NCBI GenBank assembly: GCA_003563375.1
Contig: PWSB01000204.1
Span: 1-32,104, forward strand
Direction of reading: 5' to 3'
Origin: Actinomycetota bacterium
Lineage (GTDB): Bacteria; Actinomycetota; Humimicrobiia; Humimicrobiales; Humimicrobiaceae
Length of the DNA: 32,104 nucleotides
Shown: positions 3,585-26,781 of the stretch, one piece after another
Layout of the letters: every line of letters starts with the position of its first letter
How positions within the stretch are numbered: the stretch's first letter is position 1
Translations under genes and position numbers: made by a program
The notes under the pieces: generated by a model
What the model saw: only the letters and a program-made list of their open reading frames with translations
Databases searched by the model: none
Told to the model about the DNA's origin: nothing

Positions 3585-4598
3585 ATGGTCCTGAAAGGAT
3601 GTATTTTGGCTAATTATGAAGATATTGCTGGTCTTGCCCGGGTTTCTATAGCTACTGTTTCACATGTTATAAATGGGACCAGGTTTGTACTCCCCGAAAC
3701 TCAGAAACGTGTAAGGGAGGCAATGAAAAAATTAAAATACAGGCCAAACCTGTATGCCAGGGGCCTTGCAACAGGCAAAACAAATACGGTAGGGCTTGTA
3801 ATATCAAATATTAACAACCCTTTCTATCCTGAACTTGTGCAGGGTACCGAAGAAGTCGCAGTTAAAAATAATTATAATGTTTTTCTGTGCAGCACCGATT
3901 ATGACTTGAAGAAAGGTTTGAGTACAATCGGGGCCCTTATAAGCAGGAAGATCGATGGTATCATACTTGCCTCAAGCCAAATAGACGACTCAATCATCAA
4001 TGAAATTATAGACTATGGTATAAATTTTGTAATGGTAGACTGGGGTAACAGGAATATTAAAACCGACAGCATTATTTTTGATTATAGGGTTGGCATACAG
4101 GAAGCAATAAATCACCTGGTTGACCGCGGCCATAAAAGGATTTTTTTTATAAGCGGCCCCAAAAAACATAAAACTTCCATTGTAAGGATTAATAATTTTG
4201 TAGAATCCATTAAGAATTTAAACAAAGGTGATTTAGAATACAAGATCGTAGGGGGCAATCACAAACTCGAAGGAGGTTATAAAGCAGCAAAGGAAATAAT
4301 CAAATCGGATAAAATACCCAGCGCGGTCATCTGTTCCAATGATTTTACGGCTATAGGTGCGATGCATTCCTTTATGGACAGCGGATTGAAGATACCTGAT
4401 GATATATCAATAATAGGTCTTGATAATATAAAACTTACCGAAATACTCAAGCCTAGCCTTACTACCATCGAATTAGAAAGATATAATATAGGAAAAACAT
4501 TGATGCAGCTGCTTATAAACAGGGTAGATAAACCGGAACTGCCTCTTCAAAAAAAAGTATTTAAAACCAAACTTATCGTTAGAGAAAGTACTTCTTAG
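3585..4598 (+). CDS. LacI-family transcriptional regulator
   Basis: 337-aa ORF. The N-terminal HTH is YEDIAGLARVSIATVSHVINGTRFV...YRPNLYARGL, followed by a periplasmic-binding-protein type-1 sugar-binding core. The true start may be the in-frame TTG at 3606, which is preceded by AAGGA (3595-3599). ATG 3585 has only a weak SD. Confidence 0.9.
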   Translation: MVLKGCILANYEDIAGLARVSIATVSHVINGTRFVLPETQKRVREAMKKLKYRPNLYARGLATGKTNTVGLVISNINNPFYPELVQGTEEVAVKNNYNVFLCSTDYDLKKGLSTIGALISRKIDGIILASSQIDDSIINEIIDYGINFVMVDWGNRNIKTDSIIFDYRVGIQEAINHLVDRGHKRIFFISGPKKHKTSIVRINNFVESIKNLNKGDLEYKIVGGNHKLEGGYKAAKEIIKSDKIPSAVICSNDFTAIGAMHSFMDSGLKIPDDISIIGLDNIKLTEILKPSLTTIELERYNIGKTLMQLLINRVDKPELPLQKKVFKTKLIVRESTS

Positions 4599-4637: not shown

Positions 4638-4696
4638 TTGACAAGAAAAAATAACTCTTATATGCTATTTAAGCACTTACGTAAGCACTTAAATAG
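4638..4696 (+). promoter_or_regulatory. Promoter-like TTGACA-17-TATGCT overlapped by a 32-bp near-perfect palindrome containing two tandem TAAGCACTTA boxes
   Basis: TTGACA lies at 4638-4643 and TATGCT at 4661-4666. The palindrome CTATTTAAGCACTTACGTAAGCACTTAAATAG (4665-4696) pairs at 14 of 16 positions around the central CG (4680/4681). TAAGCACTTA occurs at 4670-4679 and 4682-4691, and each copy is one substitution away from the TAAGCGCTTA box at 3574. Confidence 0.5.
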
Positions 4697-4744
4697 AAAA
4701 AGTTAGAAAAGAATTGACAAACTTCTTTTTCAAATTAAAATAAG

Positions 4745-4829: not shown

Positions 4830-5921
4830 ATGAATTCAAAACAAAGAGTGCTTACTGCTTTAGACCACCTTGAGCCTGACAGAGTGCCTATGGTTTCGAG
4901 CTTTACGCCAGAGTTTGCTTCCAAACTAAAAAAATATTTTGGCCTAAGAGACAGCCTGGTAAATCCGCATGGCGGCATCGAGCATGACTTAGAGGTAAGG
5001 CTTGGAAATGATATATTGCAGACAGCCCAGGGTTTTGCAAATTCATATTATCAAAATTTTGACCATGGCTATACTGATGATTGGGGAATTGAATGGAAAA
5101 TAGTAGGCTACCAAACTTCGAAGGGGCCCGGGAAATATACTGAGATCGCCAATAATCCTCTTTCCGATGATAGCTGCATAGAATCATATCTTCCTCCTGA
5201 CCCTCTGGATGAAAAGAAATATGAGTCTTCAAAAAAACTAGTGCAGGATTTTGGTGAAACACACGCAATAATGGGAGTCATAGTCTGTACAGTATTCGAA
5301 ACTGCCTGGGCACTTAGGGGCCTTGATAAGTTGATGATAGACCTTGCCCTAAATGAAGACACCGCACAGAAAATTCTTGATATCCCATTCAAGTATCATC
5401 TTGAAGCTGGCAAAAAACTTGCCGGGCTGGGCGTGGATATGATTTGGACAGGTGATGATGTCGGGGGCCAAAACAGCATGATGATATCACCTCAAACCTG
5501 GAAAAAATTTCTTAAACCTCGGATGGCAACAATATTCGAGGAGGTAAAAAAGATAAATAAAGATATCAAGATAGCCTACCACTCTGATGGATATATCTAT
5601 CCCATAATAGATGACCTTATAGAGATCGGATTGGATGTGCTAAATCCCGTTCAGCCTAAAAGCATGGATCCAAATTATTTAAAAAAACGTTATGGCAAAA
5701 ACTTAAGCTTATGGGGGACAATTGATATCCAGCATACCCTTCCTTTTGGGACCGAGCAAGAGGTGGCCGATGAAGTAAAGACAAGGATAAAAAACCTAGC
5801 TCCGGGGGGAGGTTTTATTATAGCACCGACCCATAATGTTCAAATAGACACTTCAATTGAAAACTTTTTTGCCTTTTGGAATACAGTTAAGGAATACGGT
5901 CGCTATCCAATAAATACCTAA
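4830..5921 (+). CDS. Uroporphyrinogen-decarboxylase (URO-D)/MtaA-like fold protein, paralogue 1. Function unknown and probably sugar-related.
   Basis: 363 aa. The C-terminal block LNPVQP...LWGTIDIQHTLPFGT.EEV..EVK.RI..LAPGGGFIIAPTHNVQ.D....N is typical of the URO-D/MT2 family. No HemE-type MRQAGR motif is present. A paralogue lies at 30046-31203. There is no obvious SD before the ATG. Confidence 0.7.
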   Translation: MNSKQRVLTALDHLEPDRVPMVSSFTPEFASKLKKYFGLRDSLVNPHGGIEHDLEVRLGNDILQTAQGFANSYYQNFDHGYTDDWGIEWKIVGYQTSKGPGKYTEIANNPLSDDSCIESYLPPDPLDEKKYESSKKLVQDFGETHAIMGVIVCTVFETAWALRGLDKLMIDLALNEDTAQKILDIPFKYHLEAGKKLAGLGVDMIWTGDDVGGQNSMMISPQTWKKFLKPRMATIFEEVKKINKDIKIAYHSDGYIYPIIDDLIEIGLDVLNPVQPKSMDPNYLKKRYGKNLSLWGTIDIQHTLPFGTEQEVADEVKTRIKNLAPGGGFIIAPTHNVQIDTSIENFFAFWNTVKEYGRYPINT

Positions 5922-5994
5922 AACCTTTAAAGGGAGGAGGGATTATAAATAGATATTTTTTTACAAATAAGTATTAAAAAGAAAAGGAGAGAAA

Positions 5995-7008
5995 ATGAGA
6001 AAACCAATTAAGGTAATTTTGTATATCACAATAGCTGCAATACTAGCCTTTGGCCTTGCAAGCTGCAGGCCAGCAGCCGAAACCCCGGCCGCTGCACCTG
6101 CTGAAGAGGCGTCAGCCGAAGAAGCCAGAGATATAACCATTGCTACAATCACCTATTCCAACGAGATCGAATGGTTCTTTATTCTGGATCAAAACTACAG
6201 GGATGTTGCTGCTGAACTGGGTATAGAGCTGGTGCAGGTAGATGCAGAGATGGACCCTCAGACTCAGGTGGATTTGATTGAGCAGATGACCCAGAGAGGT
6301 GTCGATGCAATACTTATATCCCCCGTAGACCCCCAGGTGATAAGAGCTGCAGTGCAGGATGCACTGGATGCAGGTATTATCGTACTTATACAAGGCCAGG
6401 AAAGGGAGACAGTCCCCTGGTCGACAGCCAATTTCGGTTATGATGAAGCTCAGATGGGCACCTTGACAGGAGAGATTGCAGCAGCAGGTGTAAAAGATAA
6501 ATTCCCTGATGCCACTGAATTAAAGGTTGCTGTATTAGGAGACCCCGGCTGGGCTTCCTCGATTATAAGGATGGATGGGGCAAAACAAGCATTGATGGAT
6601 AACCTTCCTGATGTGAATATTGATTTTGTCCTGGACCACGTCCTCGGGGTGACCATTGAAACTGCAACCAATGTTATAGAAAGCGCTCTGCAGCAGCATC
6701 CTGACCTTAGGACCGTAGTGGGCATAAATGATGACGCTGCGATAGGTGCTGTAGGTGCAATGCAGTCAGCAGGAATTGATATCTCAGAAGCATGCATAGC
6801 GGGTGCTGGAAATAATAGAGGTACTTGGCCCTATATTGACAGGGGAGAGATACTTGGAAGTGTTGACCTGAACCATAGGGGGACAGCTGAAGTGGCTATC
6901 AATGCAGTTGTTAGCCTGCTGGATGGCGAAGAAGTCCCTGAGATGATGTATATCGACATGATAAAGGTAACTCCAGAAAACTTAGATAATTGGTATACCG
7001 GTGAATAA
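5995..7008 (+). CDS. Sugar ABC transporter substrate-binding lipoprotein (PBP type 1, RbsB-like, CUT2 family)
   Basis: 337 aa. It has a signal peptide with lipobox LASC (Cys24), then a Pro/Ala/Glu linker (RPAAETPAAAPAEEASAEEA) and a PBP1 fold (VDAILISPVDP, GINDDAAIGA). SD AAGGAGAG lies upstream. Confidence 0.9.
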   Translation: MRKPIKVILYITIAAILAFGLASCRPAAETPAAAPAEEASAEEARDITIATITYSNEIEWFFILDQNYRDVAAELGIELVQVDAEMDPQTQVDLIEQMTQRGVDAILISPVDPQVIRAAVQDALDAGIIVLIQGQERETVPWSTANFGYDEAQMGTLTGEIAAAGVKDKFPDATELKVAVLGDPGWASSIIRMDGAKQALMDNLPDVNIDFVLDHVLGVTIETATNVIESALQQHPDLRTVVGINDDAAIGAVGAMQSAGIDISEACIAGAGNNRGTWPYIDRGEILGSVDLNHRGTAEVAINAVVSLLDGEEVPEMMYIDMIKVTPENLDNWYTGE

Positions 7009-7023
7009 ATAAGACACATAAAT

Positions 7024-7055
7024 GGCAGGGCAAAATTTAATTTTTTTGCCCTGCC
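7024..7055 (+). promoter_or_regulatory. Intercistronic 12-bp perfect stem-loop between the SBP and ATPase genes
   Basis: GGCAGGGCAAAA (7024-7035) pairs with TTTTGCCCTGCC (7044-7055) across an 8-nt loop, TTTAATTT. No U-tract follows. The hairpin lies inside the ORF-track N-terminal extension of the ATPase. Confidence 0.6.
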
Positions 7056-7066
7056 AACATTTAAAA

Positions 7067-8551
7067 ATGAAACAGGACGTCTTAATAGATTTTAAAAATA
7101 TATCCAAAAGTTTTCCCGGCGTAAAAGCATTAAAAGAGGTAAGCTTTAATATAAAAAGGGGAGAGGTACATGCCCTGGTAGGGGAAAACGGGGCGGGTAA
7201 ATCAACGCTTATAAAGATAATATCTGGCTTGCTGCATAAAGATTCGGGACAGATCATAATAAACGGGCACCAGGCCAATATTAAGACCACCACCGATGCT
7301 TTTGGCTTGGGAATTAGCTGCATATACCAGGAACTGCCCCTGGCCTTTTCCCTGAGCGTTGCAGATAATATATTCCTGGGCCAGGAGATAAAAAAATATG
7401 GTTTAATAGACAAGAAAAAACAAAACAAAATCGCTAAAAAATATTTTTCTGATTTTGATGTTGAGATAAACCCCAAGGTAATCGTCGGCAACCTAAGTGT
7501 CAGCCTGCAGCAGATAACTGCTATAATCAAAGCCATAATGAAGGAGGCTACCCTCTTTATAATGGATGAGCCAACCGCTGCCTTGAGCGAGCATGAGGTT
7601 GACAGGCTTTTTGGTTTCATTAAAAGGATTAAGAAAAAAAATATAAGCATCCTTTATATATCCCACAGGATGGATGAGATATTCGGCATAGCGGACAGGG
7701 TCACGGTATTAAAAGACGGTATTAATATGGGTACAAGGATAGTATCCGAGATCAAAAAAGAAGACCTGATCAATATGATGAGCGGAAAAATAGTCCATGA
7801 CAGCTTGTCCTACGATAAAGAGAGAAAAATTGAAGATCAGAATATTATGGAGATTGAAAACCTGTGCTATGAGAATTTATTACAGGATATAAGTTTTAAT
7901 TTAAAAAAGGGTGAAATTTTAGGAATAACCGGCTTAGTGGGTTCAGGGAAAACAGAACTGCTAAAATGTATTTATGGGCTATATAACCACAAAATAGGCA
8001 AGATTAGCTTGGTGGGCAATGCTTCGGGAAAAAAACAAGGTAAGGAATTTTTTGGCTTTATTCCAGAAGACAGAAAAAAGGAAGGCCTCTTTTTGGATTT
8101 AAATATAATGCACAACATATCGATTTCAAGCTTAAAAAAGCTTTCAAGATTCAGTTTTATAAATAAAAGGAAAGAAAAAAACCTCATTAACAAATTTGTG
8201 AAAGATCTTGGCATCAAAACCGATACCATAAAAAAGAAAGTCAAATTTTTAAGCGGCGGAAACCAGCAAAAAGTAATTTTGTCCCGTTGGCTAAGCTCTA
8301 AAAAAAAGGTTCTTTTAATGGACGAGCCTACTAGAGGAATAGATATTTTATCCAAGGCGGAGATCTATAGACTGATGAACAGATTATCCAAAAACGGTAT
8401 TTCTATTATGTTTTCCTCTTCAGACATAAATGAAGTTTTAAGCATCTCAGACAGGATAGCAGTTATGAGGGATGGAAGAATAGTAGAGATATTCGAAAGA
8501 AAGGATTTTCAAAAAGATAGGATCTTGAGAAAAACCATAATGGACAATTAA
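7067..8551 (+). CDS. Sugar ABC transporter ATP-binding protein, fused two-domain type (RbsA/MglA-like, CUT2)
   Basis: It has Walker A motifs GENGAGKST and GLVGSGKTE, Walker B motifs LFIMDEPTAAL and LLMDEPTRGID, and the signature LSGGNQQK. The ORF track starts at 7022, but residues 2-12 of that version are encoded by the hairpin. By homology the canonical N-terminus is MKQDVLIDFKNISKSFPGVKAL (ATG 7067). Confidence 0.9.
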   Translation: MKQDVLIDFKNISKSFPGVKALKEVSFNIKRGEVHALVGENGAGKSTLIKIISGLLHKDSGQIIINGHQANIKTTTDAFGLGISCIYQELPLAFSLSVADNIFLGQEIKKYGLIDKKKQNKIAKKYFSDFDVEINPKVIVGNLSVSLQQITAIIKAIMKEATLFIMDEPTAALSEHEVDRLFGFIKRIKKKNISILYISHRMDEIFGIADRVTVLKDGINMGTRIVSEIKKEDLINMMSGKIVHDSLSYDKERKIEDQNIMEIENLCYENLLQDISFNLKKGEILGITGLVGSGKTELLKCIYGLYNHKIGKISLVGNASGKKQGKEFFGFIPEDRKKEGLFLDLNIMHNISISSLKKLSRFSFINKRKEKNLINKFVKDLGIKTDTIKKKVKFLSGGNQQKVILSRWLSSKKKVLLMDEPTRGIDILSKAEIYRLMNRLSKNGISIMFSSSDINEVLSISDRIAVMRDGRIVEIFERKDFQKDRILRKTIMDN

Positions 8552-8566
8552 AAAAAGGAGCATGAT

Positions 8567-9556
8567 TTGAAAAATAATAAGCAAGCTTTTTCCGGGCTTA
8601 AAAAAGAGGCATCCTCTGCTTCGCTGTCAAAAAAGTTTTTTGCTGTTGAAAATATAGGCATTTATATTTTTCTAACTATGCTTATCATATTTTTCTCAGT
8701 TATGACTAATGCTTTTTTGACCTTTAGCAATTTTATAGTCATCTTAAGGCAGGTTTCAATTATCGGCATAGCAGCTTTTGGCCAGGCACTTGTGGTCATT
8801 TCAGGCGGGATAGACCTTTCGGTAGGTTCCATAGTTGCCCTGTCAGGCGTAATTGCCGCTTCCCTGACCAATTTTTTCGGGGTACCCATACCACTTGCAT
8901 TTTTAATCGGTATTATGGCGGGGGGAGTCTGCGGCCTTGCCAATGGAGTGCTTGCCACTAAGGTTAAAATACCCCCTATTATAGTTACTCTGGGAACCCT
9001 GACCATAATAAGAGGCTTAGCTTTTATAATCGTGGGAGGCCATACCGTATTTGGTATGCCTGAAAGCTACAGGGTCCTTGGCAGGGGTTATGTGGGTTTT
9101 ATTCCCATTCCTGTGCTCATCATGATTGTATTTTTTATCTTATTTTTTATAGTGCTAAATAACTTAAACTTTGGAAGGCACATATATGCCACAGGTAGCA
9201 ACGAAGAAGCAGCCCTGATTTCCGGGCTTAATGTGGTAAAGATCAAGACCATGGTATTTGTCATATCCGGGTTAATGGCCGGTATAGGGGGCGCGATACT
9301 TTCTTCAAGGCTTGACAGCGGCCAGGCAGCAACTGCCCAGGGCCTGGAGCTGGATGTTCTTACCGCGGTGGTCCTTGGAGGGGTAAGTATTGCAGGAGGC
9401 AAAGGAAGGCTTGAAAGCGTGTTTGTAGGGGTACTCATAATAGGTATACTCGCAAACGGCATGGTGCTCCTAAACGTACAGCATTTCTATCAGTTGGTCA
9501 TAAAAGGGGCAGTGCTTCTTCTAGCTGTAAGCCTGGACGTTTTGAAGAAAAAATAA
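8567..9556 (+). CDS. Sugar ABC transporter permease (RbsC/AraH-like)
   Basis: 329-aa polytopic membrane protein with the motif ISGGIDLSVGSIVAL. It has a TTG start preceded by AAGGAG (8555-8560). Confidence 0.9.
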   Translation: MKNNKQAFSGLKKEASSASLSKKFFAVENIGIYIFLTMLIIFFSVMTNAFLTFSNFIVILRQVSIIGIAAFGQALVVISGGIDLSVGSIVALSGVIAASLTNFFGVPIPLAFLIGIMAGGVCGLANGVLATKVKIPPIIVTLGTLTIIRGLAFIIVGGHTVFGMPESYRVLGRGYVGFIPIPVLIMIVFFILFFIVLNNLNFGRHIYATGSNEEAALISGLNVVKIKTMVFVISGLMAGIGGAILSSRLDSGQAATAQGLELDVLTAVVLGGVSIAGGKGRLESVFVGVLIIGILANGMVLLNVQHFYQLVIKGAVLLLAVSLDVLKKK

Positions 9557-9572
9557 TACGAAGGAGGATAAA

Positions 9573-10922
9573 ATGAAACCAAAGATAGTTATAATAGGCT
9601 CTGGTAGCCAATTTACTGAATTTTTCCTACAAGAATATTTTAAATTTGAAGAATTTAAAGGCACTACCCTTTCTTTGGTAGACAGGAAACAGGGTAGGCT
9701 GGACCAGGAGATAAGATTAGCCCGGTCGCTGAATGATGCGGTAGGCTGGGAAGTTGAAATTGAAGGAAATACAGACAGGAAAAAGGCTCTGCAAAACGCA
9801 GATTATGTATACTGTTTTGTGGCTGTGAACCACATGGAGACATGGAAAAAAGAATTTGAAATAGCCAATAAAAATGGTATCTATCCTTTCGAGGCATATA
9901 CTGTGGGAGCACCCGGGCTGGGGATGTCTATGAGGCATGTTCCGGTCATGCTTGACATATGCAAGGACATGGAAGATATCTGCCCTGATGCTTGGCTCTT
10001 GCTCGACAACAACCCACTTGCAAAGATTATGGCGGCAGTCATGAAGCACACGAATGTAAAATGTATAGGTTACTGCAATGGACATGAACTCCTGCAGATG
10101 GCTTTGGAACAGCTTTTGGATATGGATGAAAGGGATGTTTCTGAGAGGGCAGCAGACCCTGTTGAAAGGGAGTTCATGGTTCCCGCAGGGAATATCGATA
10201 TCACCTTATCAGGGATAAACCATTGCCAATTTTTATTAGATATAAGAGATTCAAAAACAGGTGATGACCTTTATGGCCAGCTTAGAAAAAACATAGAGAC
10301 AAAGGAAATCCCAGCCGGGTATAAATTTTCTGCAGAAGTATGCAGGCTTCTTGGCTGGTTTCCTTCACCAGCTGATAACCACATAGCAGACTACATATGG
10401 TGTATTGATAAAAATATAAGTGAGGATTATGACTTGGCTCCGTATCCTGTAGACCAGTGGTTTGGGGGCAGGGATGAAAAACAATGGGCCAAAATAGCTG
10501 ACAGTATAGACTCCAAAAAAGATGCCCAAAATTTTATATCCAAAAGAAGGGTGGGATGGCTGAATGTACAGTTAGCTAGGGCTATGATGAAAGGGGTACC
10601 TACCTATTTTCCGGCTATAAACTTGTTAAACAATGGCTGTATACCCAACCTTGACCCAGATATCATTGTAGAAGTCCCTGCAGTGTTAGGGCCTGGCGGG
10701 GCTAAAGCTGTAAGCACGGGTGAACTTCCTGCAGAGGTCCAGCCGATATGCGCCCTTCATGGAAAGATAACCAATATTGTAGGGGATGCCGCAGCCCTAG
10801 GCTCAAAGGAGCTTGCACTTCAGGCACTTATTCTGGATCCTTTTATACCTGACCTTAAAACAGCCAAAAACATACTTGAAGATATGCTGGATTACAATAA
10901 AAATTATTATACCCGTTTTTAA
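9573..10922 (+). CDS. Glycoside hydrolase family 4 (NAD+/Mn2+-dependent alpha-glycosidase; alpha-galactosidase-like from context)
   Basis: 449 aa. It has the N-terminal Rossmann motif KIVIIGSGSQF, the DNNPLAKI block and the GYCNGHE (G-x-C-x-G-H) block typical of GH4. SD AAGGAGGA lies upstream. Confidence 0.8.
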   Translation: MKPKIVIIGSGSQFTEFFLQEYFKFEEFKGTTLSLVDRKQGRLDQEIRLARSLNDAVGWEVEIEGNTDRKKALQNADYVYCFVAVNHMETWKKEFEIANKNGIYPFEAYTVGAPGLGMSMRHVPVMLDICKDMEDICPDAWLLLDNNPLAKIMAAVMKHTNVKCIGYCNGHELLQMALEQLLDMDERDVSERAADPVEREFMVPAGNIDITLSGINHCQFLLDIRDSKTGDDLYGQLRKNIETKEIPAGYKFSAEVCRLLGWFPSPADNHIADYIWCIDKNISEDYDLAPYPVDQWFGGRDEKQWAKIADSIDSKKDAQNFISKRRVGWLNVQLARAMMKGVPTYFPAINLLNNGCIPNLDPDIIVEVPAVLGPGGAKAVSTGELPAEVQPICALHGKITNIVGDAAALGSKELALQALILDPFIPDLKTAKNILEDMLDYNKNYYTRF

Positions 10923-10930
10923 AATAGGTT

Positions 10931-12118
10931 ATGGAAGATTTTTTCAAAAAACAAGAGATGATATTCCTAGAAAAATTTATGGCTGGCAAAAAAAAGTTTG
11001 ATCCTGAAGAATCAGTAAAAGTGATATCTCCGGGCAGATTAAATATTATAGGCGAACATACTGATTACAATCTAGGATTTTCGCTTCCTATGGCTATAGA
11101 TAAGCATAAATATTTTACAGCTGTAAGAAATAATTCCAAAAAAGTTAAAATATTTGATAATGGGTTTAATGAATATTATGAATTTGACCTTGGTCATATA
11201 AAATATGACCGCAGCGTTAAATGGTCCAATTACATAAAGGGCGTAATAGATGAATACCAAAAAGACGGAAAGCAAATAGACGGTTTTAACCTTGTAATCG
11301 ATAGTGACCTGGTGTCAGGTGCGGGCTTAAGTTCTTCGGCAGCAATGCTTTTGGGGACTTCCCTGGCAATAGAAGGATTATTCGGTTTCAATAGCAAGAA
11401 AAATAAAATCTTAGGCTATTGCCATGATGCTGAAAATAATTTTGTCAGAATAAATAATGGTTTTTTGGATCATTTTTCTGTTCTTTTTGGTAAAAAGGAT
11501 AATGCGATTTTTTTAAATTTTAAAAACCTGGATTACAAGTATGTTCCGGTATCTCTCCAAAAGTATAGTTTTTTGGTCATTGATTCAAAAGAGGAAAGGT
11601 ATCTTCCCGAAACAGATTACAATAAAAGAAGATTGGAATGCGAACAGGCAGTTCGTTTTATCAATCATGATACTGCCAATAACATAAATTCCTTATCGGA
11701 TTTAAACATCGGTTTTCTGGGGGAAATAGCCAATAAAATCGATAATATCCTCTATAGGAGAGTAAAACATGTAGTGGAAGAAAACCAAAGGGTTGCCAGG
11801 TCTGTTGAGATATTGAGGTCAAATAAAATGAGTTCGCTCGGAGAATTATTGGTAGAATCCCATGAAAGTCTAAGGGATGATTACGAAGTCTCGACTCAAA
11901 AACTTGATTTTATAGTTGAAAGTCTGTTAAAAACCAGAGGAGTCCTGGGAGCAAGGATGATGGGCGCAGGGTTCGGCGGCTGCCTCATAAGCCTTATAGA
12001 AAAAAACAGGCTTGACGGAATAGTTGAAAAGATAAGTGATAGTTATTTTAAAAAGTTTAAAATCAGACCTGATTTCATCAACTGTAAGTCAGCTGATGGG
12101 GTCCATAGGATAAATTAA
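10931..12118 (+). CDS. galK: Galactokinase
   Basis: GHMP-kinase and galactokinase signatures are present: PGRLNIIGEHTDYN, GAGLSSSAA and MMGAGFGGC. Confidence 0.9.
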   Translation: MEDFFKKQEMIFLEKFMAGKKKFDPEESVKVISPGRLNIIGEHTDYNLGFSLPMAIDKHKYFTAVRNNSKKVKIFDNGFNEYYEFDLGHIKYDRSVKWSNYIKGVIDEYQKDGKQIDGFNLVIDSDLVSGAGLSSSAAMLLGTSLAIEGLFGFNSKKNKILGYCHDAENNFVRINNGFLDHFSVLFGKKDNAIFLNFKNLDYKYVPVSLQKYSFLVIDSKEERYLPETDYNKRRLECEQAVRFINHDTANNINSLSDLNIGFLGEIANKIDNILYRRVKHVVEENQRVARSVEILRSNKMSSLGELLVESHESLRDDYEVSTQKLDFIVESLLKTRGVLGARMMGAGFGGCLISLIEKNRLDGIVEKISDSYFKKFKIRPDFINCKSADGVHRIN

Positions 12119-12119
12119 A

Positions 12120-12317
12120 ATGATGAAAAAAAGAAAAATTATTACAAAAAAAAGGGAAAAAACAAATATTCCTACGGATGATGGCAGGTTAAGCTTGGCT
12201 ACGGACGAAGATGGCTGTGATAAAGGATGCATAATAGAAGAAGATAAAATAGTTAAAAAGATGATTGTAAAGGAAGATGGGAGATATTTGATATTTTATA
12301 ATTTCAAAAGGCCTTAA
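12120..12317 (+). CDS. Small basic ORF in the same frame as galT and 6 nt upstream of it. It resembles the N-terminal extension of long-form GalT, so the gene may be split.
   Basis: 65 aa. The C-terminal KEDGRYLIFYNF resembles the (L)ADGR.LIYY segment that precedes the R.DP...CPLCP region in long GalT proteins (recalled from memory). The TAA at 12315-12317 is in frame with the ATG at 12324. Confidence 0.4.
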   Translation: MMKKRKIITKKREKTNIPTDDGRLSLATDEDGCDKGCIIEEDKIVKKMIVKEDGRYLIFYNFKRP

Positions 12318-12323
12318 ATACCG

Positions 12324-13295
12324 ATGCTGCAATCAAGAAGAGACCCCATAAAAAATGATAGGATAGCAATAGCCACAAAAAGGCAGGGAAGGACATTTTT
12401 TCCACTAAAAGATTACTGTCCGTTATGCCCTACCCTAAATAAAAAAAATAGTACTGAGATACCAGATAAAGAGTATGATATTGTGGTCTTTGAGAATAAG
12501 TTTCCAACGTTTAGCAGAAATCCTGACCTGGGTGAACAAGATATCGGCCCTCCTTATGCTGTTTATCCCTCAAAAGGAATATGCGAGGTAATCTGTTATA
12601 CACAGAACCATCAAGAATATCTAGAAGATCAGCCCCTAAACAAGATAGAAAACTTAATAAATGTTTGGGCTGACCGGTATTATAATCTTGGTGCCAAAAA
12701 TTATATAAAATACGTTTTAATATTTGAGAACAAGGGAAAAGAGATAGGAGTGACCTTATCCCATCCGCATGGCCAAGTATACGCTTTTACCTATATCCCT
12801 CCGATTATCAAGCAAGAGCTGGCTTCTTCAAAAAAATATTTTAAAGCAAAAAAAGAATGCTTGCACTGCACCATCATCAAAAAAGAGCGGGAAGCCGGAC
12901 AGAGGATGGTAATAGAGAATAAAGAATTTATAGCTTTTGTCCCATTTTATGCTAGGTGGCCTTATGAAGTACACATATATCCATTGTCCCATCAAGAAAA
13001 TATTAGCCAATTAGGTGAAGAGCAAATAAAATACCTCGCAATGATATTAAAAGAATTGATCAACAGGTATAATTCATTGTTCAATTTTAAAATGCCTTAT
13101 GTGATGGTTATACACCAAACACCTACCGATAAAAAGGATCACGGTTATTATCACCTACATTTTGAGTTTTATCCTCCTTACCGGACCAGCAATAAGCTTA
13201 AATTCTTAGCGGGCTGTGAATTAGGTGCAGGAACATTTATCAATGATACATTGCCTGAAGAAAAAGCTGAGGAGTTAAGAAAGATCAAGGTTTAA
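12324..13295 (+). CDS. galT: Galactose-1-phosphate uridylyltransferase (HIT superfamily, class I)
   Basis: It has the zinc-region motif CPLCP, IFENKGKEIGVTLSHPHGQVYAF containing the H-x-H-x-Q active site, and a second half-domain with HLHFEFYPP. Confidence 0.9.
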   Translation: MLQSRRDPIKNDRIAIATKRQGRTFFPLKDYCPLCPTLNKKNSTEIPDKEYDIVVFENKFPTFSRNPDLGEQDIGPPYAVYPSKGICEVICYTQNHQEYLEDQPLNKIENLINVWADRYYNLGAKNYIKYVLIFENKGKEIGVTLSHPHGQVYAFTYIPPIIKQELASSKKYFKAKKECLHCTIIKKEREAGQRMVIENKEFIAFVPFYARWPYEVHIYPLSHQENISQLGEEQIKYLAMILKELINRYNSLFNFKMPYVMVIHQTPTDKKDHGYYHLHFEFYPPYRTSNKLKFLAGCELGAGTFINDTLPEEKAEELRKIKV

Positions 13296-14810: not shown

Positions 14811-16310
14811 ATGAAAGATAAATATATATTAAATAAATTTAGAAAATGCTTTGGCCAAACACTTAAAATATATGATTCCTCATTAGTTTCTCATTGTGGT
14901 AACAGGTTTTTTCTGGCTAAAGAAGGGCACCAAAAATTTTTATATATTATTGGAAATGAAGCTTATGGACGGCTGGAGGAATTTAGAGGCAAACCCATTG
15001 GGTCTATTGAAATAGACGGTTACGATTTAATAGCTGGAAAAGCGGAACTAAATCATATAAATCTTAAACTGATGCAGGAGATTTTCCCCCACCTTAATCC
15101 AAGCCTTTGCGGCCTAAAGCCATCATTTGGGACAGGGGACAGGCTGGGAATGGTAACCCCGGCACATGTAGGATCTTTTAGGGGAAGAAAAATATTTCCT
15201 TATTTCTGCCAGCAGTCGGTAAGGGAGTTAAATAAGACCGGCCGTTCTTGGCAGGAATCGATCAGGGATTCTATCTGGGGTGTATTTGAGGCCGGTTATA
15301 AAAATCCTTTCGGTGCTGATGCAGACCATGTTAAGGATATGGGAGATCTTAATGCTGCAATCAAAAATGGTTTTACGATGTTTACCATTGATCCTTCAGA
15401 TTTTATAGCAAACGGGCTTGGAAATGAAGAAAATAGGGAAATAAGCAAAAGATATGACTCTATTGTTGAAAAAAAAGAAATCGAGAGGTCCTATCTGGGA
15501 AAAAAAATAACCATTGGCAAAGAGGTACTGCAATTTGATTTAGATTCATTAAAATTTATTGCAGCCTGCTATTATGACGCTATAAAACATGTTGTAAAAT
15601 GTTATAAATTCATTGAAGAAAATAAGGAAGGTAATTTTGATTTTGAAGTTTCCATGGATGAAACAGAAAGTGCTATCTCGCCTCTGGCACACATATTCAT
15701 AACCGGTGAGCTCCAAAGGAACGAAGTAAACTTTCAGAACTTGGCACTCCGTTATCCGGGAGTATGGGAAAAAGCAGTAGATTACTGCGGTGATATTGAA
15801 GGATTCAGCAAAGAGCTGAAAACACATGCCCAAGTTGCTAAAAAATTTGGGCCATACAAGTTATCTCTTCATTCGGGAAGTGAAAAATTTTCTGTATTTC
15901 CTATTTTTTCTGAGGAGACCGGAGGGCTTTTTCATATAAAGACCTCAGGGACAAGCTGGCTTGAATCCCTAAGGACAATTGCTGCGGTAAACCCGGTCCT
16001 TTTTAAAGATATATATGATTATGCCCTTAACAATTATGAAGAAGAGAAAAAATCTTATCATATATCAACAGGCCTTTCATCTGTTCCAGCTATAACCAGG
16101 TTTAGCAGGGATGAGTATGGGGGCCTACTTGATAAAAAAGAGTGCCGGCAAATGCTGCATGTGACTTATGGCGCAATACTGACTGCAACAAAGCAAGAGA
16201 ATTATATTTTCAGGGATACTATTTATAAGGTATTGGATGAAAATGAGCCTGTTCACTACAGGCACATAACTGAAAATATAGATAAGCATCTTGACCTGGT
16301 AAGGATATAA
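14811..16310 (+). CDS. uxaE: UxaE-family sugar(-acid) 4-epimerase (tagaturonate/fructuronate epimerase-like)
   Basis: 499 aa. The length and motif pattern (SFGTGDRLG, FGADADHVK, SLHSGSEKF, HIKTSGTSWLE) match my recollection of the Thermotoga UxaE family. An SDR reductase and gnd follow, as in the Thermotoga cluster. Confidence 0.6.
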   Translation: MKDKYILNKFRKCFGQTLKIYDSSLVSHCGNRFFLAKEGHQKFLYIIGNEAYGRLEEFRGKPIGSIEIDGYDLIAGKAELNHINLKLMQEIFPHLNPSLCGLKPSFGTGDRLGMVTPAHVGSFRGRKIFPYFCQQSVRELNKTGRSWQESIRDSIWGVFEAGYKNPFGADADHVKDMGDLNAAIKNGFTMFTIDPSDFIANGLGNEENREISKRYDSIVEKKEIERSYLGKKITIGKEVLQFDLDSLKFIAACYYDAIKHVVKCYKFIEENKEGNFDFEVSMDETESAISPLAHIFITGELQRNEVNFQNLALRYPGVWEKAVDYCGDIEGFSKELKTHAQVAKKFGPYKLSLHSGSEKFSVFPIFSEETGGLFHIKTSGTSWLESLRTIAAVNPVLFKDIYDYALNNYEEEKKSYHISTGLSSVPAITRFSRDEYGGLLDKKECRQMLHVTYGAILTATKQENYIFRDTIYKVLDENEPVHYRHITENIDKHLDLVRI

Positions 16311-16346
16311 TAATCTTTAATATGTTTTTTAAGGAGATTTTTAAAA

Positions 16347-17168
16347 ATGATAGTTAAAAGTATTTTCGATCTAAAAGACAAAACAGCTGCTATTATAGGG
16401 GCAACAGGGTCTCTAGGTTTTTCAATTGCTGCAGGGCTAGCAGGTGCGGGAGCAAGGATTGCGGTATGCGGAAGATCCAATTACAGACAAAAAGCAGAAT
16501 CACTGGCAGGCAAAGGTATAGATGCAAAAGGTTATTATATCGATGTGATGGACAAGGATAAGATTATTCAATGTAGAAATAATATAATAGCTGATTTTAA
16601 GGGAGTCGATATTTTAGTAAATGCAGCAGGAGGGAATTTAAATGAAGCTACAACCAGCAGTGAGTTATCTTTTTTTGATCTAAAAAAAGAAAGCTTAAGC
16701 GAGGTAATAGATTTAAATCTCTTTGGCGGAGCCATACTCCCAGCCCAGGTATTTGGGAAAGAAATGGCAGAAAACAGTGGGGGAGGCTCGATTATCAATA
16801 TTTCTTCTATGAATGCTTTTAGGCCTCTTACTAAAATTCCAGGTTATTCTGCTGCCAAGGCAGCGGTATCAAATTTTACTCAGTGGCTCGCAGTACATTT
16901 TGCACAGGAATATAATAAAAACTTGAGAGTAAACGCCATAGCTCCTGGGTTTTTTTTAACCAGGCAGAATCATTATCTATTATTTGACAAGGAAGAAAAT
17001 CTTACAGAAAGGGGCCGGTCAATAATAGCCCATACCCCGATGGCTGGGTTTGGCAAGCCCGAAGACCTTGTTGGAGTATGCGTATGGCTTGCCTCTGAAG
17101 CTTCAAGATTTGTTACAGGCATAGTTATTCCTATAGATGGCGGTTTTAGCGCATATTCAGGGGTATGA
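16347..17168 (+). CDS. Short-chain dehydrogenase/reductase, YjmF/UxaD-like (fructuronate/mannonate oxidoreductase candidate)
   Basis: 273 aa. It has GATGSLG (cofactor binding), NAAGGNLNEATT, and a catalytic Ser...YSAAK triad segment. Confidence 0.75.
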   Translation: MIVKSIFDLKDKTAAIIGATGSLGFSIAAGLAGAGARIAVCGRSNYRQKAESLAGKGIDAKGYYIDVMDKDKIIQCRNNIIADFKGVDILVNAAGGNLNEATTSSELSFFDLKKESLSEVIDLNLFGGAILPAQVFGKEMAENSGGGSIINISSMNAFRPLTKIPGYSAAKAAVSNFTQWLAVHFAQEYNKNLRVNAIAPGFFLTRQNHYLLFDKEENLTERGRSIIAHTPMAGFGKPEDLVGVCVWLASEASRFVTGIVIPIDGGFSAYSGV

Positions 17169-17225
17169 CTACCTGTTTTTGAGTGATTTATGTAAGCAGT
17201 CATTTAAAATTGAAAGGAATTTAGG

Positions 17226-18704
17226 ATGGAAAAAAAAGATTTGGGCCTTATAGGCCTTGCGGTTATGGGTCAGAACCTTGTGCTTAATATAGAATCAAAA
17301 GGTTATTCTGCTGCAGTATACAACAGGACAGAAAGCAGGACAAAGGATTTTATTGAAGGAAAAGCAAAAGACAAAAATATAGAAGCCGCATTTTCTTTAA
17401 AAAAATTTGTGGACAGCATCAAAAGGCCAAGGAAAATCATGCTTATGGTAAAAGCCGGCAAGCCTGTAGACAATACCATTGAAGAAATCCTTCCCTTGCT
17501 TGAGCCGGGAGACCTTCTAATAGACGGGGGGAATTCATTTTATAAGGATACCATAAGAAGGGAGGAGTTTCTTTTAGAAAAAAATATCCTATACATAGGT
17601 ACCGGAGTTTCTGGCGGTGAGGAAGGGGCTCTTCTGGGTCCTGCCATTATGCCTGGAGGAAAGAGGAAGGCATATGATATGGTAAAAGATATATTTTCAG
17701 ATATTTCAGCAAAAGCAAAAGATGGCAAACCATGCGTATCTTATATAGGGCCAAATGGAGCCGGGCACTTTGTAAAGATGGTCCATAACGGGATCGAGTA
17801 CGGTGATATGCAGCTAATAGGAGAGTGCGTATGGGGTTTGAAGAATGCCCTTGGTTGGAATTCAGAACAAATTGCAGACATAATGGAAGAATGGGACAGG
17901 CCTTCTGACATATTATCCTCTTATCTTATAGAGATAACCGGCAAGGGGATGAGGGAGACCGAAAAGAAATCGGGAAGCTACCTGGTAGACAGGACCGCTG
18001 ATATTACCAGGATGAAGGGGACAGGCACATGGACGGTTGCAAGCGCTCTTGAGCTGCTTGTTCCAATACCTACAATAGCAGCAGCGGTATTTTCAAGGGA
18101 AACGAGCCAGGATAAGGACTTGAGGCTTGGGATTTCAAAGATATTGAAGCCGGCGGCTTCTAAAATAGATTTAAACGGGCAAAAATTCACTGATATAGCC
18201 CACGACGCCCTGTATATTGCCAAAATCTCTTCATACGCCCAAGGTTTTGCACTAATGGAGGCAGCGTCTTCTAAATACGGCTGGAACCTTGATATGGGAA
18301 GGATTGCCGAAGGTTGGAGAGCTGGATGCATAATACGGGCACAGTTTCTATCAAAGATCACTGAAGAATACAAGGCAGATCCAAAATTGCCCAATCTTAT
18401 GGCAGCGCCTTATTTTTCTAAATTTATCAACCAGAAACTTGTAAGCCTTTCAAGGTTTATTGAGGTTGCCCGCCATGTTGGAGTGCCTGCTCTTGCGATG
18501 GGGTGTGCTTATGACTACATACTTCAGATAGCCTCTCCTGTCATGGTATCAGCGCAGGTAGCCGCCCAGCAGAGGGACTACTTCGGCGCTCACGGCTATT
18601 TTAAGCTTAAGGATTCCCAAGAGATAGAGCTAAAACCTGATGGAAGCTACCAGGAATATCATACAGAATGGATGGAGGATGGCCGCCCGGAAAAAAAGTT
18701 ATAG
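17226..18704 (+). CDS. gnd: 6-phosphogluconate dehydrogenase, decarboxylating
   Basis: 492 aa. It shows GLIGLAVMGQNLVLN, GGNSFY, GTGVSGGEEGA, GAGHFVKMVHNGIEYGDMQLI and QRDYFGAHGY. Confidence 0.9.
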   Translation: MEKKDLGLIGLAVMGQNLVLNIESKGYSAAVYNRTESRTKDFIEGKAKDKNIEAAFSLKKFVDSIKRPRKIMLMVKAGKPVDNTIEEILPLLEPGDLLIDGGNSFYKDTIRREEFLLEKNILYIGTGVSGGEEGALLGPAIMPGGKRKAYDMVKDIFSDISAKAKDGKPCVSYIGPNGAGHFVKMVHNGIEYGDMQLIGECVWGLKNALGWNSEQIADIMEEWDRPSDILSSYLIEITGKGMRETEKKSGSYLVDRTADITRMKGTGTWTVASALELLVPIPTIAAAVFSRETSQDKDLRLGISKILKPAASKIDLNGQKFTDIAHDALYIAKISSYAQGFALMEAASSKYGWNLDMGRIAEGWRAGCIIRAQFLSKITEEYKADPKLPNLMAAPYFSKFINQKLVSLSRFIEVARHVGVPALAMGCAYDYILQIASPVMVSAQVAAQQRDYFGAHGYFKLKDSQEIELKPDGSYQEYHTEWMEDGRPEKKL

Positions 18705-18730
18705 AAAAAATACTGATTTAGGAGGCTGAT

Positions 18731-19810
18731 ATGACAAGTGAGTTTCGCAAAGACTGCAAATATAGCCTGATTACACCTACAAGCATAGGGGTCCGCATCA
18801 CTCCAGCAGGCAGGCAGCCGGTTGATTGCAGTTCAACTTTTTTTATGCAGACTACCAGTGCCGAGACCAATGTCGCAAGCGTGTCTTCTTATTTGGGCTT
18901 GCCCGTAAAAGTTCTTACTGTATTTGTAAAAGACAGTCCTATTTCAAAAATGATAAAAAGCAATCTAATGTCAAGAAATATGTCCTTTGAAGGCAAGGAT
19001 GTTTTCCAGGGGGGGCCATGGGGATACCGCCACCAGTTCAACATTGCTGACAGCGGTTATGGCTCCCGGCGCCCCAGGGTCCAAAATGACCGCGCTGGGG
19101 AAGTTGGCAGGATACTGAACACAGAGGATTTTGACCTGGATAGGATTTTTAATAGTGAGGGAGTTTCCATCCTCCACCTTTCGGGTCTTATCGTCTCCCT
19201 ATCCAGGCAGACAGGAAGCTTTTGCAGCAAGTTGGCCAAAGCTGCAAAGGAGAGCGGGACAAAGATTTGCTTTGATCTAAACTACAGGGCTTCATTTTGG
19301 AAGAACCGGGAAGATGAGCTTGGTAAAACCTTTTCCCGTATTGCACAACTTACAGATTACCTTGTGGGCAATGAGGAGGACTTCCAGCTCTGTCTTGGCT
19401 TAAAGGGCCCTGAGGCCGGTGGGAGGAAATTGTCCTCAAAGATTGAAAGCTTTAAGGAAATGATAAAGGATGTAAGGGAAAAATATCCCAGTACATCTGT
19501 TTTTGCCACGACCCTTAGAGAGGTGGTCAATGCAAATCGCCATCTATGGGGTGCAATAATGCTTGAAGGTGAAAGTTGGCATGTAATAGAACCGCGTGCA
19601 ATTGAGGTTATAGACCGGATAGGGGGCGGTGACGGATTTGTGGGGGGAATGCTTTACGGCATACTGAAGGGCTGGGAGCCTGAAAAGTGGATACAATTCG
19701 GCTGGGCATCCGGAGCATTCGTAGCTACCCTGATTACAGATTATGCTACTCCTGCAGACGAAGAACAGATATGGGATATCTGGCGCGGAAACGCAAGGGT
19801 CAGGCGTTAA
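18731..19810 (+). CDS. PfkB-family sugar-acid kinase (2-keto-3-deoxygluconate kinase-like)
   Basis: 359 aa. It has the C-terminal PfkB signature RIGGGDGFVGGMLYG and LVGNEEDF. Its overall layout resembles the long KdgK-type kinases. SD AGGAGG lies upstream. Confidence 0.7.
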   Translation: MTSEFRKDCKYSLITPTSIGVRITPAGRQPVDCSSTFFMQTTSAETNVASVSSYLGLPVKVLTVFVKDSPISKMIKSNLMSRNMSFEGKDVFQGGPWGYRHQFNIADSGYGSRRPRVQNDRAGEVGRILNTEDFDLDRIFNSEGVSILHLSGLIVSLSRQTGSFCSKLAKAAKESGTKICFDLNYRASFWKNREDELGKTFSRIAQLTDYLVGNEEDFQLCLGLKGPEAGGRKLSSKIESFKEMIKDVREKYPSTSVFATTLREVVNANRHLWGAIMLEGESWHVIEPRAIEVIDRIGGGDGFVGGMLYGILKGWEPEKWIQFGWASGAFVATLITDYATPADEEQIWDIWRGNARVRR

Positions 19811-19816
19811 AGCCTT

Positions 19817-21100: not shown

Positions 21101-21168
21101 TACGGAAATAAAATATGTTTTTATGCTTTTTATTAATTTCAAAGTCTTAGGGAAAGGCGGTATGTGAC

Positions 21169-21930: not shown

Positions 21931-21990
21931 GGAAAGTTTTTTAAGGAAAGATGCATTCTGTTTGCTTATAAATACAAATAGGGGGGTTTT

Positions 21991-22956: not shown

Positions 22957-23003
22957 AAGGTTTTAACCAATATAATTATTTTTTATTATACGAGGAAGTA
23001 AAC

Positions 23004-26672: not shown

Positions 26673-26690
26673 ATCCCTTAGCTCTAGTAA

Positions 26691-26728
26691 CGGCAGGGAG
26701 TAGGAATTCTACTCCTTGCCGCTTTTTT
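26691..26728 (+). terminator. Rho-independent terminator/attenuator between the SBP and permease genes
   Basis: CGGCAGGGAGTAG (26691-26703) pairs with CTACTCCTTGCCG (26709-26721) to form a 13-bp stem with one G-U pair and a 5-nt loop. It is followed by CTTTTTT (26722-26728). Confidence 0.75.
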
Positions 26729-26781
26729 AAATTTGAGAAAAAGCTTTTAGATTCAATATATTACTTCTGAAAGGCGGCAGG

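Follow-up and report, generated by a model that had tools for sequence, protein, structure and literature searches.

We analyzed a 32-kb stretch of DNA (the window, by which we mean this whole stretch; mean GC 39%) from an Actinomycetota bacterium of the Humimicrobiaceae, in which the gene UROD1 (ORF 4830-5921) encodes a protein with the fold of uroporphyrinogen decarboxylase (URO-D) and heads an operon for sugar import and galactose catabolism. The most likely role of UROD1, to which we give about an even chance, is to strip methyl groups from methylated sugars without oxygen, a reaction for which we found no described enzyme. Specifically, we propose that UROD1 could be a substrate-specific methyl-sugar:corrinoid methyltransferase (MT1, the type of enzyme that loads a corrinoid protein), catalyzing the first step of an anaerobic O-demethylation that feeds the Leloir pathway; we infer both the substrate and the chemistry, and the assignment could as easily prove wrong as right. 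Methyl transfer through a corrinoid is suggested by the fold, the relationship to the methyltransferase MtaA, the adjacency of corrinoid-protein genes to UROD1 orthologues, and a gene fusion.

Methyl-etherified sugars, such as 2-O-methyl-fucose, 2-O-methyl-xylose, 3-O-, 4-O- and 6-O-methyl-galactose, 3-O-methyl-rhamnose and 4-O-methyl-glucuronate, are common in plant, algal and microbial glycans, and the methyl group blocks their normal catabolism. Relatives of UROD1 are found in hundreds of uncultured anaerobes beside sugar importers, often also beside a B12-carrier protein. If the proposed function is correct, it would fill a gap in anaerobic glycan degradation, extend corrinoid O-demethylase chemistry from aryl to aliphatic ethers, reveal that carbohydrate and one-carbon metabolism are connected in a new, B12-dependent way in abundant uncultured lineages, and correct a widespread misannotation as "uroporphyrinogen decarboxylase". 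What would be new is the class of substrate that a corrinoid-methyltransferase system handles and the way in which such a system is wired in the genome.

Fold, family and metal-ligand positions of UROD1

The UROD1 product, of 363 residues, matches the Pfam URO-D family (PF01208) with an E-value of 1.2e-25, and its AlphaFold model (pLDDT 91.6, pTM 0.90) has the (beta/alpha)8 fold of that family. The top Foldseek match of the model is the methyltransferase MtaA (PDB 4ay7; E-value 5e-16, TM-scores 0.70/0.75, 20% identity); HemE structures align with TM-scores of ~0.7 and 12-18% identity, and MetE ranks lower. Sequence and profile searches of the PDB with UROD1 matched MtaA and HemE alone, with no closer solved relative, and a profile of 27 family sequences placed MtaA (4ay7) on top at an E-value of 2e-15, with HemE at just 1e-4. 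Against curated models, UROD1 scored 24.9 bits for the hemE equivalog TIGR01464 (cut-off 302.95), 67 bits for TIGR01463 (MtaA/CmuA; cut-off 235), and 69 and 55 bits for NF004889 and NF040654 (cut-offs 244 and 400); it therefore fails the MtaA/CmuA, PRK06252 and MtaA models, with 55-69 bits against cut-offs of 235-400.

The profile alignment to 4ay7 shows that the zinc motif H-x-C of MtaA corresponds to H251-S-D253 in UROD1 and its P-G-C to P-T-H335, and that UROD2, the second URO-D gene of the window (ORF 30046-31203), has H-S-C and A-V-H at these positions. Based on the curated-model scores, the structural neighbors, the profile matches and this ligand alignment, UROD1 has the URO-D fold and belongs to the methyltransferase side of its superfamily, with a metal site that is retained but re-ligated. 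The same curated-model scores and altered zinc ligands rule it out as a canonical second methyltransferase (MT2) of the MtaA type.

Residues fully conserved in 80 UROD1 orthologues are D17, H47, D61, Y81, W85, Y103, E157, R163, D171, D209, D210, Q214, K229, H251, Q275, D299, Q301, H335, Q338 and D340; accordingly, the ligand positions H251 and H335 are present in 80/80 sequences, and D253 in 79/80. In the structure model, the conserved residues from E157 onward come after the predicted barrel strands, at the canonical active-site face of a TIM barrel, and the N-terminal 125 residues contain many conserved aromatics, as in sugar-binding sites. This polar and aromatic set is what would be expected of a sugar-binding pocket with a metal, and the H/D/H site, harder than the H/C/C site of MtaA, would be suited to coordinating the oxygen of an ether or hydroxyl group.

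The possibility that UROD1 is an ordinary HemE lying by chance in a sugar operon draws on its Pfam match and on public annotations, since the more than 7,000 homologues found at E < 1e-5 in a large protein database are all either unnamed or labeled "uroporphyrinogen decarboxylase". This explanation is effectively refuted by the TIGR01464 score, by the 12-18% identity to HemE structures and by the absence of the RQAGR-type substrate-binding motif, in place of which UROD1 has PDRVPMVSSFTPEF (VPMVSSFTPEF) and its orthologues keep SFTPEF. In addition, no heme-synthesis genes lie nearby, and the conserved context is sugar transport. An earlier reading of the window, made from its letters and open reading frames (ORFs) without database searches (the sequence-only reading), had judged UROD1 to be neither HemE nor a canonical MT2, noting the missing MRQAGR-type motif, H251-S-D253 at the MT2 zinc position and a distal His in both URO-D copies; the curated-model scores, the alignment to 4ay7 and the translations bear out these points.

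That reading had also offered the removal of a carboxyl decoration as an alternative. We found no evidence in support of it, and a decarboxylase acting on uronic sugars was dropped as a candidate, both for want of a supporting context and because the URO-D decarboxylation mechanism depends on a pyrrole electron sink.

Sugar and corrinoid genes around UROD1 relatives

The genomic context of the family was examined in two sets of loci. For the genome set, one genome per GTDB species was scanned; at least 596 stretches encode a relative, and 80 loci with 49-69% identity to UROD1 were kept, from Actinomycetota, Atribacterota, Chloroflexota, Spirochaetota, Acidobacteriota, Verrucomicrobiota, Planctomycetota and others. 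The metagenome set comprises 80 further independent loci, giving 160 related loci. Neighboring ORFs were searched with the window's own proteins, and those left unmatched were clustered and the clusters annotated with Pfam. Loci flanked by at least 5 kb on either side were considered well-flanked (39 genome loci and 23 metagenome loci), and vicinity was defined as within 6 kb. The closest database homologues, 70% identical to UROD1, come from Humimicrobiaceae (Actinomycetota) and from metagenome-assembled genomes (MAGs) of Atribacterota, and an exhaustive profile search recovered 2,928 clusters (50% identity) at E ≤ 1e-30.

Sugar-related genes recur around the UROD1 orthologues. In the well-flanked loci, components of an ATP-binding cassette (ABC) transporter lie in the vicinity of the orthologue in 26/39 genome and 13/23 metagenome loci, mostly of the type found in the window's second locus (solute-binding protein SBP2, short ATPase, permease Perm2); another URO-D-like paralogue is present in 25/39 and 13/23, respectively, and a sugar-catabolic gene (GalK, GalT, FGGY kinase, fucose-isomerase-like, class II aldolase, AraA, mutarotase, GH2, GH4 or GH42) in 20/39 and 14/23. 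Partner genes, most of them co-directional, become sparser farther away from the orthologue, a decay that is not seen for the histidine-kinase control. A LacI gene occurs in 24/80 loci of the genome set, 19 of them having it within 6 kb, and the 80 metagenome loci reproduce the neighborhood picture of the genome set.

Individual loci resemble the window closely. One contains close orthologues of all four partner genes in the order SBP1-ATPase1-Perm1-GH4-UROD1 (L101), another carries the same transporter as the window operon divergently adjacent to the orthologue, with GH4 downstream (L012), and in a third the GH4 gene adjoins the orthologue (MFS-GH4-UROD1, L088). The closest relatives of the window locus (L008/L098) read LacI-UROD2-UROD1-SBP-ATPase-Perm-GalK-GalT, and L087 reads LacI-SBP-ATPase-Perm-UROD2-UROD1-FucI-like-ROK-FGGY-aldolase II-GalK-GalT. 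Because complete standard pathways (Leloir, or isomerase/kinase/aldolase) stand beside the URO-D genes and no core step is vacant, a pre-processing role suits the URO-D proteins better than that of an absent core enzyme. The sequence-only reading had made its sugar link depend on an enrichment of sugar genes in other genomes, and the recurrence of CUT2 importers and catabolic genes leaves that link standing. Its suggestion that a decoration is removed before the Leloir steps holds up in part: the neighborhood evidence favors the methyl variant, as a likely rather than a demonstrated activity, and the carboxyl variant falls away.

Two further gene types were noted near these loci. In Chloroflexota loci, a gene for a secreted transglutaminase-like protein recurs, oppositely oriented, between those of the ABC transporter and of URO-D (L072:4428-5474, L028:6170-7252, L037:7613-8656 and 9 further loci). 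Transporter-less loci from peat metagenomes (L119, L152, L167, L173, L175) and from an Acidobacteriota MAG (L031) encode a candidate GH2-like large protein on the opposite strand, ~1-2 kb from the UROD1 orthologue.

The two URO-D proteins of the window are 34% identical over their full length (E-value 2e-60), and both translations have the N- and C-terminal motifs that the sequence-only reading had described as shared; its placement of the second copy inside a CUT2 sugar locus agrees with the genes that precede UROD2 (SBP, permease, ATPase and an FGGY kinase). It had also spoken of a fold recruited twice to transporters, which understates the extent: the URO-D-like neighbors in the related loci fall into five groups, so that at least five paralogue groups co-occur, and those of the two window genes are adjacent in many genomes. 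G1 comprises UROD1 (H-[ST]-D … P-[TS]-H-[HN]-V-Q), G2 comprises UROD2 (H-[ST]-C … H-N-x-Q), G4 is marked by H-S-C-G-D … A-H-D-V, and G5 by H-[TS]-D-G-R; G2 is adjacent to the G1 orthologue in 24/80 genome loci. G3 (F-H-x-D-G-K; ~370 residues) lacks a Pfam match and has marginal profile similarity to URO-D: a search of the PDB gave no match, and its profile match to URO-D has a probability of 8-35%. G3 genes occur, for example, at L061:11119-12228, L028:1745-2899, L130:7089 onward and L165:9684 onward, directly after the corrinoid gene in a recurrent triad with UROD1, and are candidates to encode the second methyltransferase that is missing.

The second-largest cluster of unassigned neighbors is a corrinoid protein (CP) of 210-230 residues with the domains B12-binding_2 and B12-binding and the motif GDLHDIGKN, of the DxHxxG type. 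Its gene lies within 6 kb of the UROD1 orthologue in 24 of the 160 related loci, always co-directional and mostly adjacent. In the genome set, a hidden Markov model detected CP in 15/80 loci (12 within 2 kb, 2 at 2-4 kb and 1 beyond), and the 14 copies lying within 6 kb are co-directional without exception, a pattern absent from the histidine-kinase control; in the metagenome set it was found in 10/80 loci, in 9 of them within 77 bp, with 10/10 copies co-directional. The frequency in well-flanked loci is 12/62. Observed arrangements include Perm-CP-UROD1, UROD2-CP-UROD1, UROD2-UROD1-G4-CP and CP-UROD1-mutarotase-like-G5-GalT-GalK-G2, and a recurrent one is LacI-FucI-like-FGGY-aldolase II-UROD1-CP-G3-SBP-ATPase-Perm. 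The UROD1-linked CPs form one conserved group, with a mean identity of 65%, whose nearest solved relatives are the corrinoid proteins of methyltransferase systems: 1y80 (Moorella), MttC and 4jgi (Desulfitobacterium). CP-linked and unlinked UROD1 orthologues have every conserved active-site residue in common.

Two further proteins connect the family with corrinoids. Reverse look-up of an abundant CP (P0146) revealed the operon DeoR-SBP-ATPase-Perm-CP-mutarotase-like-URO-D, the last gene being of the G5 type, with no G1 gene nearby. A protein of 648 residues (P0384) consists of a UROD2 orthologue (44% identical over 385 residues), a linker of ~55 residues and a complete B12-binding module. Together with the CP adjacency in 24/160 loci, these cases in relatives speak against the earlier suggestion of a cobalamin-independent chemistry. 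Another member of the CP group (P0218) is an orphan gene, and therefore the corrinoid gene can be unlinked. When the CP profile was searched for carriers in Atribacterota and Humimicrobiia, the best 120 matches were dominated by Chloroflexota.

Several Chloroflexota loci also encode a glycyl-radical enzyme and its activase immediately beside the CP and URO-D genes (L035:3-2476, L037:12977-15828, L075:12844-15686, L083:3091-5156, L139/L141:15849 onward). The enzyme belongs to the 1,2-eliminase type and lies closest to choline trimethylamine-lyase and to diol or glycerol dehydratases, and in L006 microcompartment shell genes lie nearby as well. It may catalyze a propanediol-type step after the release of fucose or rhamnose, or be part of the same pathway.

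Several observations weigh against a corrinoid-dependent UROD1. The 32-kb window, including the ORF cut at its 3' end, contains no corrinoid protein, activase or cobamide gene, as the sequence-only reading had stated for the first two. Approximately 80% of the well-flanked related loci have no corrinoid gene within 6 kb, among the loci without one being the closest relatives (L008/L098), L087, L089 and Caldatribacterium, and the CP-linked orthologues are just 49-55% identical to the UROD1 of the window. Among the 125 unassigned neighbor ORFs, neither a RACE-type activase nor a pterin-binding methyltransferase recurs; an activase and a second methyltransferase may be encoded elsewhere. The P0384 fusion is a singleton on one 6.8-kb contig, which could be an assembly or frameshift artefact, and for this reason it is supportive but not proof. 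From a chemical perspective, the characterized URO-D-type O-demethylases act on aryl methyl ethers, and the alkoxide of an aliphatic sugar leaves far less readily; the sole precedent we know of for activation of an aliphatic C-O bond is the unrelated zinc enzyme MtaB. That the window itself lacks a corrinoid gene weighs little, because most related loci lack one nearby and one was found unlinked.

These points bear on a rather unlikely, though serious, alternative, in which UROD1 is a cobalamin-independent, metal-dependent sugar-converting enzyme that uses its H-D-H site as a Lewis acid (an isomerase, an epimerase or a remover of another decoration), with the corrinoid link limited to a subset of paralogues or lineages. 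Such an enzyme would agree with the lack of a corrinoid gene in the window and in most related loci, with minimal loci consisting of LacI-UROD1-SBP-ATPase-permease alone, with the presence of Asp and His, which are harder and typical of metal sites acting on sugars, where MT2 enzymes have Cys ligands, and with the position of UROD2 after an FGGY kinase without an isomerase nearby. Against it stand the identical active-site set of CP-linked and unlinked orthologues, and the CP gene directly adjoining the UROD1 orthologue itself in most of the 24 CP-linked loci. Moreover, URO-D loci already contain an isomerase, kinase, aldolase, GalK and GalT, leaving no core step vacant, and to our knowledge no member of the URO-D superfamily is an isomerase.

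The corrinoid loci also raise the question of which methyltransferase UROD1 would be. It is improbable, in our assessment, that UROD1 is the MT2 that passes the methyl group from CP to a thiol or to tetrahydrofolate, with UROD2 to UROD4 and G3 as the sugar-specific enzymes. Its closest characterized relative, MtaA, is indeed an MT2, and in CP loci UROD1 nearly always occurs with another URO-D-like gene (G1-CP-G3 triads, CP-G1-…-G5), as in operons of the MT-CP-MT kind. Nevertheless, UROD1 is the sole URO-D gene beside a dedicated sugar transporter in the window and in Caldatribacterium, Halanaerobiales and Spirochaete loci, which fits a substrate-specific enzyme. Other paralogues pair with CP without UROD1 nearby, so UROD1 is not an obligatory shared partner; furthermore, it lacks the thiol-activating Cys ligands, and the conserved aromatics of its N-terminal region resemble sugar-binding sites. 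An MT1 role is preferred over that of a shared MT2 because each paralogue can pair with CP alone and because UROD1 stands alone with a dedicated transporter in several lineages.

Under the MT1 proposal, the substrate would be a methylated sugar of the galactose type, either a monosaccharide or a small glycoside, brought in by the CUT2-type transporter. The sugar would bind in the TIM-barrel site of UROD1, where a metal held by H251, D253 and H335 would polarize the methoxy oxygen, and the Co(I) of a separate corrinoid protein would attack the methyl carbon, yielding methyl-Co(III) and free galactose. Galactose would then enter the Leloir pathway through GalK and GalT, with GH4 releasing the sugar first if a glycoside is imported, and a second methyltransferase would take the methyl group on from the corrinoid protein. 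We infer that the genome encodes a corrinoid protein, which, like the second methyltransferase and any activase, would lie outside the window. At the second transporter locus, UROD2 would play the corresponding part for another methylated sugar. Extended to the whole family, this suggests a modular system for anaerobic, cobalamin-dependent sugar O-demethylation, in which at least five URO-D-like groups each provide the MT1 for their own methyl-sugar, with their own CUT2 importer and standard pathway, and use one dedicated corrinoid protein in common; we place this broader model slightly short of an even chance.

Organization of the sugar loci in the window

The features of the window are listed in the table below. 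UROD1 opens a co-directional run with short spacers, followed by the genes for SBP, ATPase, permease, GH4, galK and galT, so that the ORFs and Pfam assignments agree with the earlier description of UROD1 as the first gene of a sugar run at 4830-13295. The hallmarks of a CUT2-type importer (a Peripla_BP_4 solute-binding protein, a BPD_transp_2 permease and an ABC ATPase) are present in the window, and the nearest solved relatives of SBP1 are ribose- and monosaccharide-binding proteins.

Table. Positions of URO-D genes, sugar genes and candidate control elements in the window
Feature	Position	Strand	Description
LacI-family regulator	3585-4598	+	Upstream of the operon; Pfam LacI and Peripla_BP_1/3
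Sigma-70-like promoter match 1	4638-4666	+	TTGACA-17-TATGCT; consensus match alone
Sigma-70-like promoter match 2	4714-4741	+	TTGACA-16-TAAAAT; consensus match alone
32-bp palindrome	4665-4696	.	CTATTTAAGCACTTAC / GTAAGCACTTAAATAG, central TTACGTAA core; abuts the -10 hexamer of the first promoter match
UROD1	4830-5921	+	URO-D-fold protein, proposed methyl-sugar:corrinoid methyltransferase (MT1); Pfam, curated models, structure model, conservation
SBP1	5995-7008	+	Solute-binding lipoprotein of CUT2-type monosaccharide ABC importer; Peripla_BP_4
ABC ATPase	7022-8551	+	Double-domain; two ABC_tran stretches
Stem-loop	7023-7056	+	Perfect 13-bp stem, directly after the SBP1 stop codon
ABC permease	8567-9556	+	BPD_transp_2
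GH4 glycosidase	9573-10922	+	Best model alpha-galactosidase-like, score under cut-off
galK	10931-12118	+	Galactokinase; GalKase_gal_bdg and GHMP domains
galT	12324-13295	+	Galactose-1-phosphate uridylyltransferase; GalP_UDP_transf N- and C-terminal domains
Second sugar ABC set	25578-29984	+	SBP2 25578-26672; permease 26782-27783; single-domain ATPase 27780-28511; FGGY (XylB-like) kinase 28512-29984; transporter type most frequent beside UROD1/UROD2 orthologues in other loci
UROD2	30046-31203	+	385 residues, proposed second methyl-sugar methyltransferase; Pfam URO-D E-value 1.1e-23; closes the second locus

The spacer of 231 bp between the LacI gene and UROD1 contains both promoter-like sites and the palindrome. 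The total of promoter-like matches in the region is close to the number in shuffled sequence; the core of the palindrome (TTACGTAA) has a single occurrence in the window against 0.02 expected by chance, and the palindrome is a plausible candidate for a LacI-type operator, as judged from its sequence. The stem-loop behind SBP1 has a folding energy of -23.8 kcal/mol (z-score -5.9). Since it overlaps the listed ATG of the ATPase gene, the real start of the latter is probably the Met at 7067, and the stem-loop may raise the stability of the SBP1 mRNA or attenuate read-through. The operon is otherwise tightly packed, apart from a galK-galT gap of 205 bp (12119-12323); the true start of galT may lie upstream of 12324, because the GalT match begins at profile position 34. 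Both solute-binding proteins, SBP1 and SBP2, have long low-complexity tethers rich in Ala, Glu and Pro after the lipobox Cys and stand out from the other proteins by their marked acidity; GC content is 47.7% in the region of the SBP1 gene, compared with the window's 39%.

The ORF cut by the 3' end of the window (31245-32102), directly 3' of UROD2, encodes a NagA-like amidohydrolase, the second NagA-like gene of the window. Together with the other (23004-24134) and with NagB, it hints at amino-sugar chemistry around the second locus. Positions 14811-24134 form a second catabolic island of unusual composition, with a tagaturonate epimerase (UxaE), an SDR protein, a 6-phosphogluconate-dehydrogenase-like protein, a PfkB kinase, and LarA-like, SIS, acetamidase/formamidase-like and NagA-like deacetylase proteins, with NagB on the opposite strand. 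The best model for the LarA-like protein, a nickel-pincer "putative hexonate epimerase", gives 167 bits where its cut-off is 500. Overlapping ORFs at the window's 5' end (57-1050) look in sequence like a candidate nucleotidyltransferase/HEPN pair, of the MNT-HEPN toxin-antitoxin type.

Comparison with known systems

The MT2 enzymes MtaA, MtbA, MtsA and CmuA are the closest known systems. They have in common with UROD1 the URO-D TIM barrel, the best sequence and structure match, the conserved His as first metal ligand, and the N-terminal motif …RVL.AL.h.e.DRvP, and they partner a separate corrinoid protein, as proposed for UROD1. In contrast, the identity to MtaA is ~20%, the zinc site H-x-C…C stands against H-S-D…H in UROD1, and the context is methanogenesis rather than sugar import and catabolism. 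MtaA-type enzymes unload the corrinoid to a thiol, whereas UROD1 is predicted to load it. HemE resembles UROD1 in fold (TM-score ~0.7) and Pfam family and differs in identity (12-18%), in its substrate-binding arginines, which UROD1 lacks, and in context. A functional analogy exists with the methanol:corrinoid methyltransferase MtaB, in which Co(I) attacks a metal-activated aliphatic C-O bond; its zinc-activated methanol is a chemical precedent for demethylation of a non-aromatic oxygen. MtaB belongs to another family with other zinc ligands, and none of our searches detected it.

The aryl methyl ether O-demethylases OdmB, VdmB, MtvB and MtoB are MT1 enzymes of the URO-D superfamily with a separate corrinoid protein (PMC8630106, PMC10418091). 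As compared by their descriptions, the reaction proposed here is identical to theirs, a methyl ether and a Co(I)-corrinoid protein giving an alcohol and methyl-Co(III). They act on phenyl methyl ethers, which have good leaving groups, while the substrate of UROD1 would be an aliphatic sugar ether, and their operons usually include an MT2 and an activase. The mlp gene clusters of type 1 (Kountz & Balskus 2023, PMC10418091), widespread and uncharacterized in non-methanogens, combine several MtaA-like paralogues of the UroD superfamily with a corrinoid protein. The Mlps are ~30% identical to MtaA/MtbA, occur mostly in Firmicutes, cluster with a RACE activase and have been proposed to act on methyl-sulfur or methyl-selenium compounds, with no sugar transporter described (PMC10418091). 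By description, the UROD family is set apart from them by a corrinoid gene that is often unlinked, by the lack of an activase nearby and by CUT2 importers as the constant partner; instead of the type 1 architecture (Mlp2, Mlp3, CP and RACE), the window has two unlinked URO-D genes with neither CP nor activase.

Our literature search returned no paper connecting URO-D-like or corrinoid proteins with methylated sugars; its relevant finds were the preprint on the mlp clusters (PMC10418091) and a P450 study (PMC6292453). For carbohydrate demethylation, it found only the P450 of that study, a cytochrome P450 of marine Bacteroidota that demethylates 6-O-methyl-D-galactose; the enzyme is a monooxygenase that depends on oxygen and yields formaldehyde. 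Because this was the only enzymology found, the search gave no account of how strict anaerobes cope with methylated sugars. The P450 enzyme performs the same biological task as that proposed for UROD1, taking the methyl ether off galactose for catabolism, but it has an unrelated fold and, being oxygen-dependent, cannot work in anoxic habitats. If the broader modular model is correct, UROD1 and its relatives would be the anoxic counterpart of this P450 demethylase, channeling sugar-bound methyl groups of glycans into C1 metabolism in sediments, peat and digesters.

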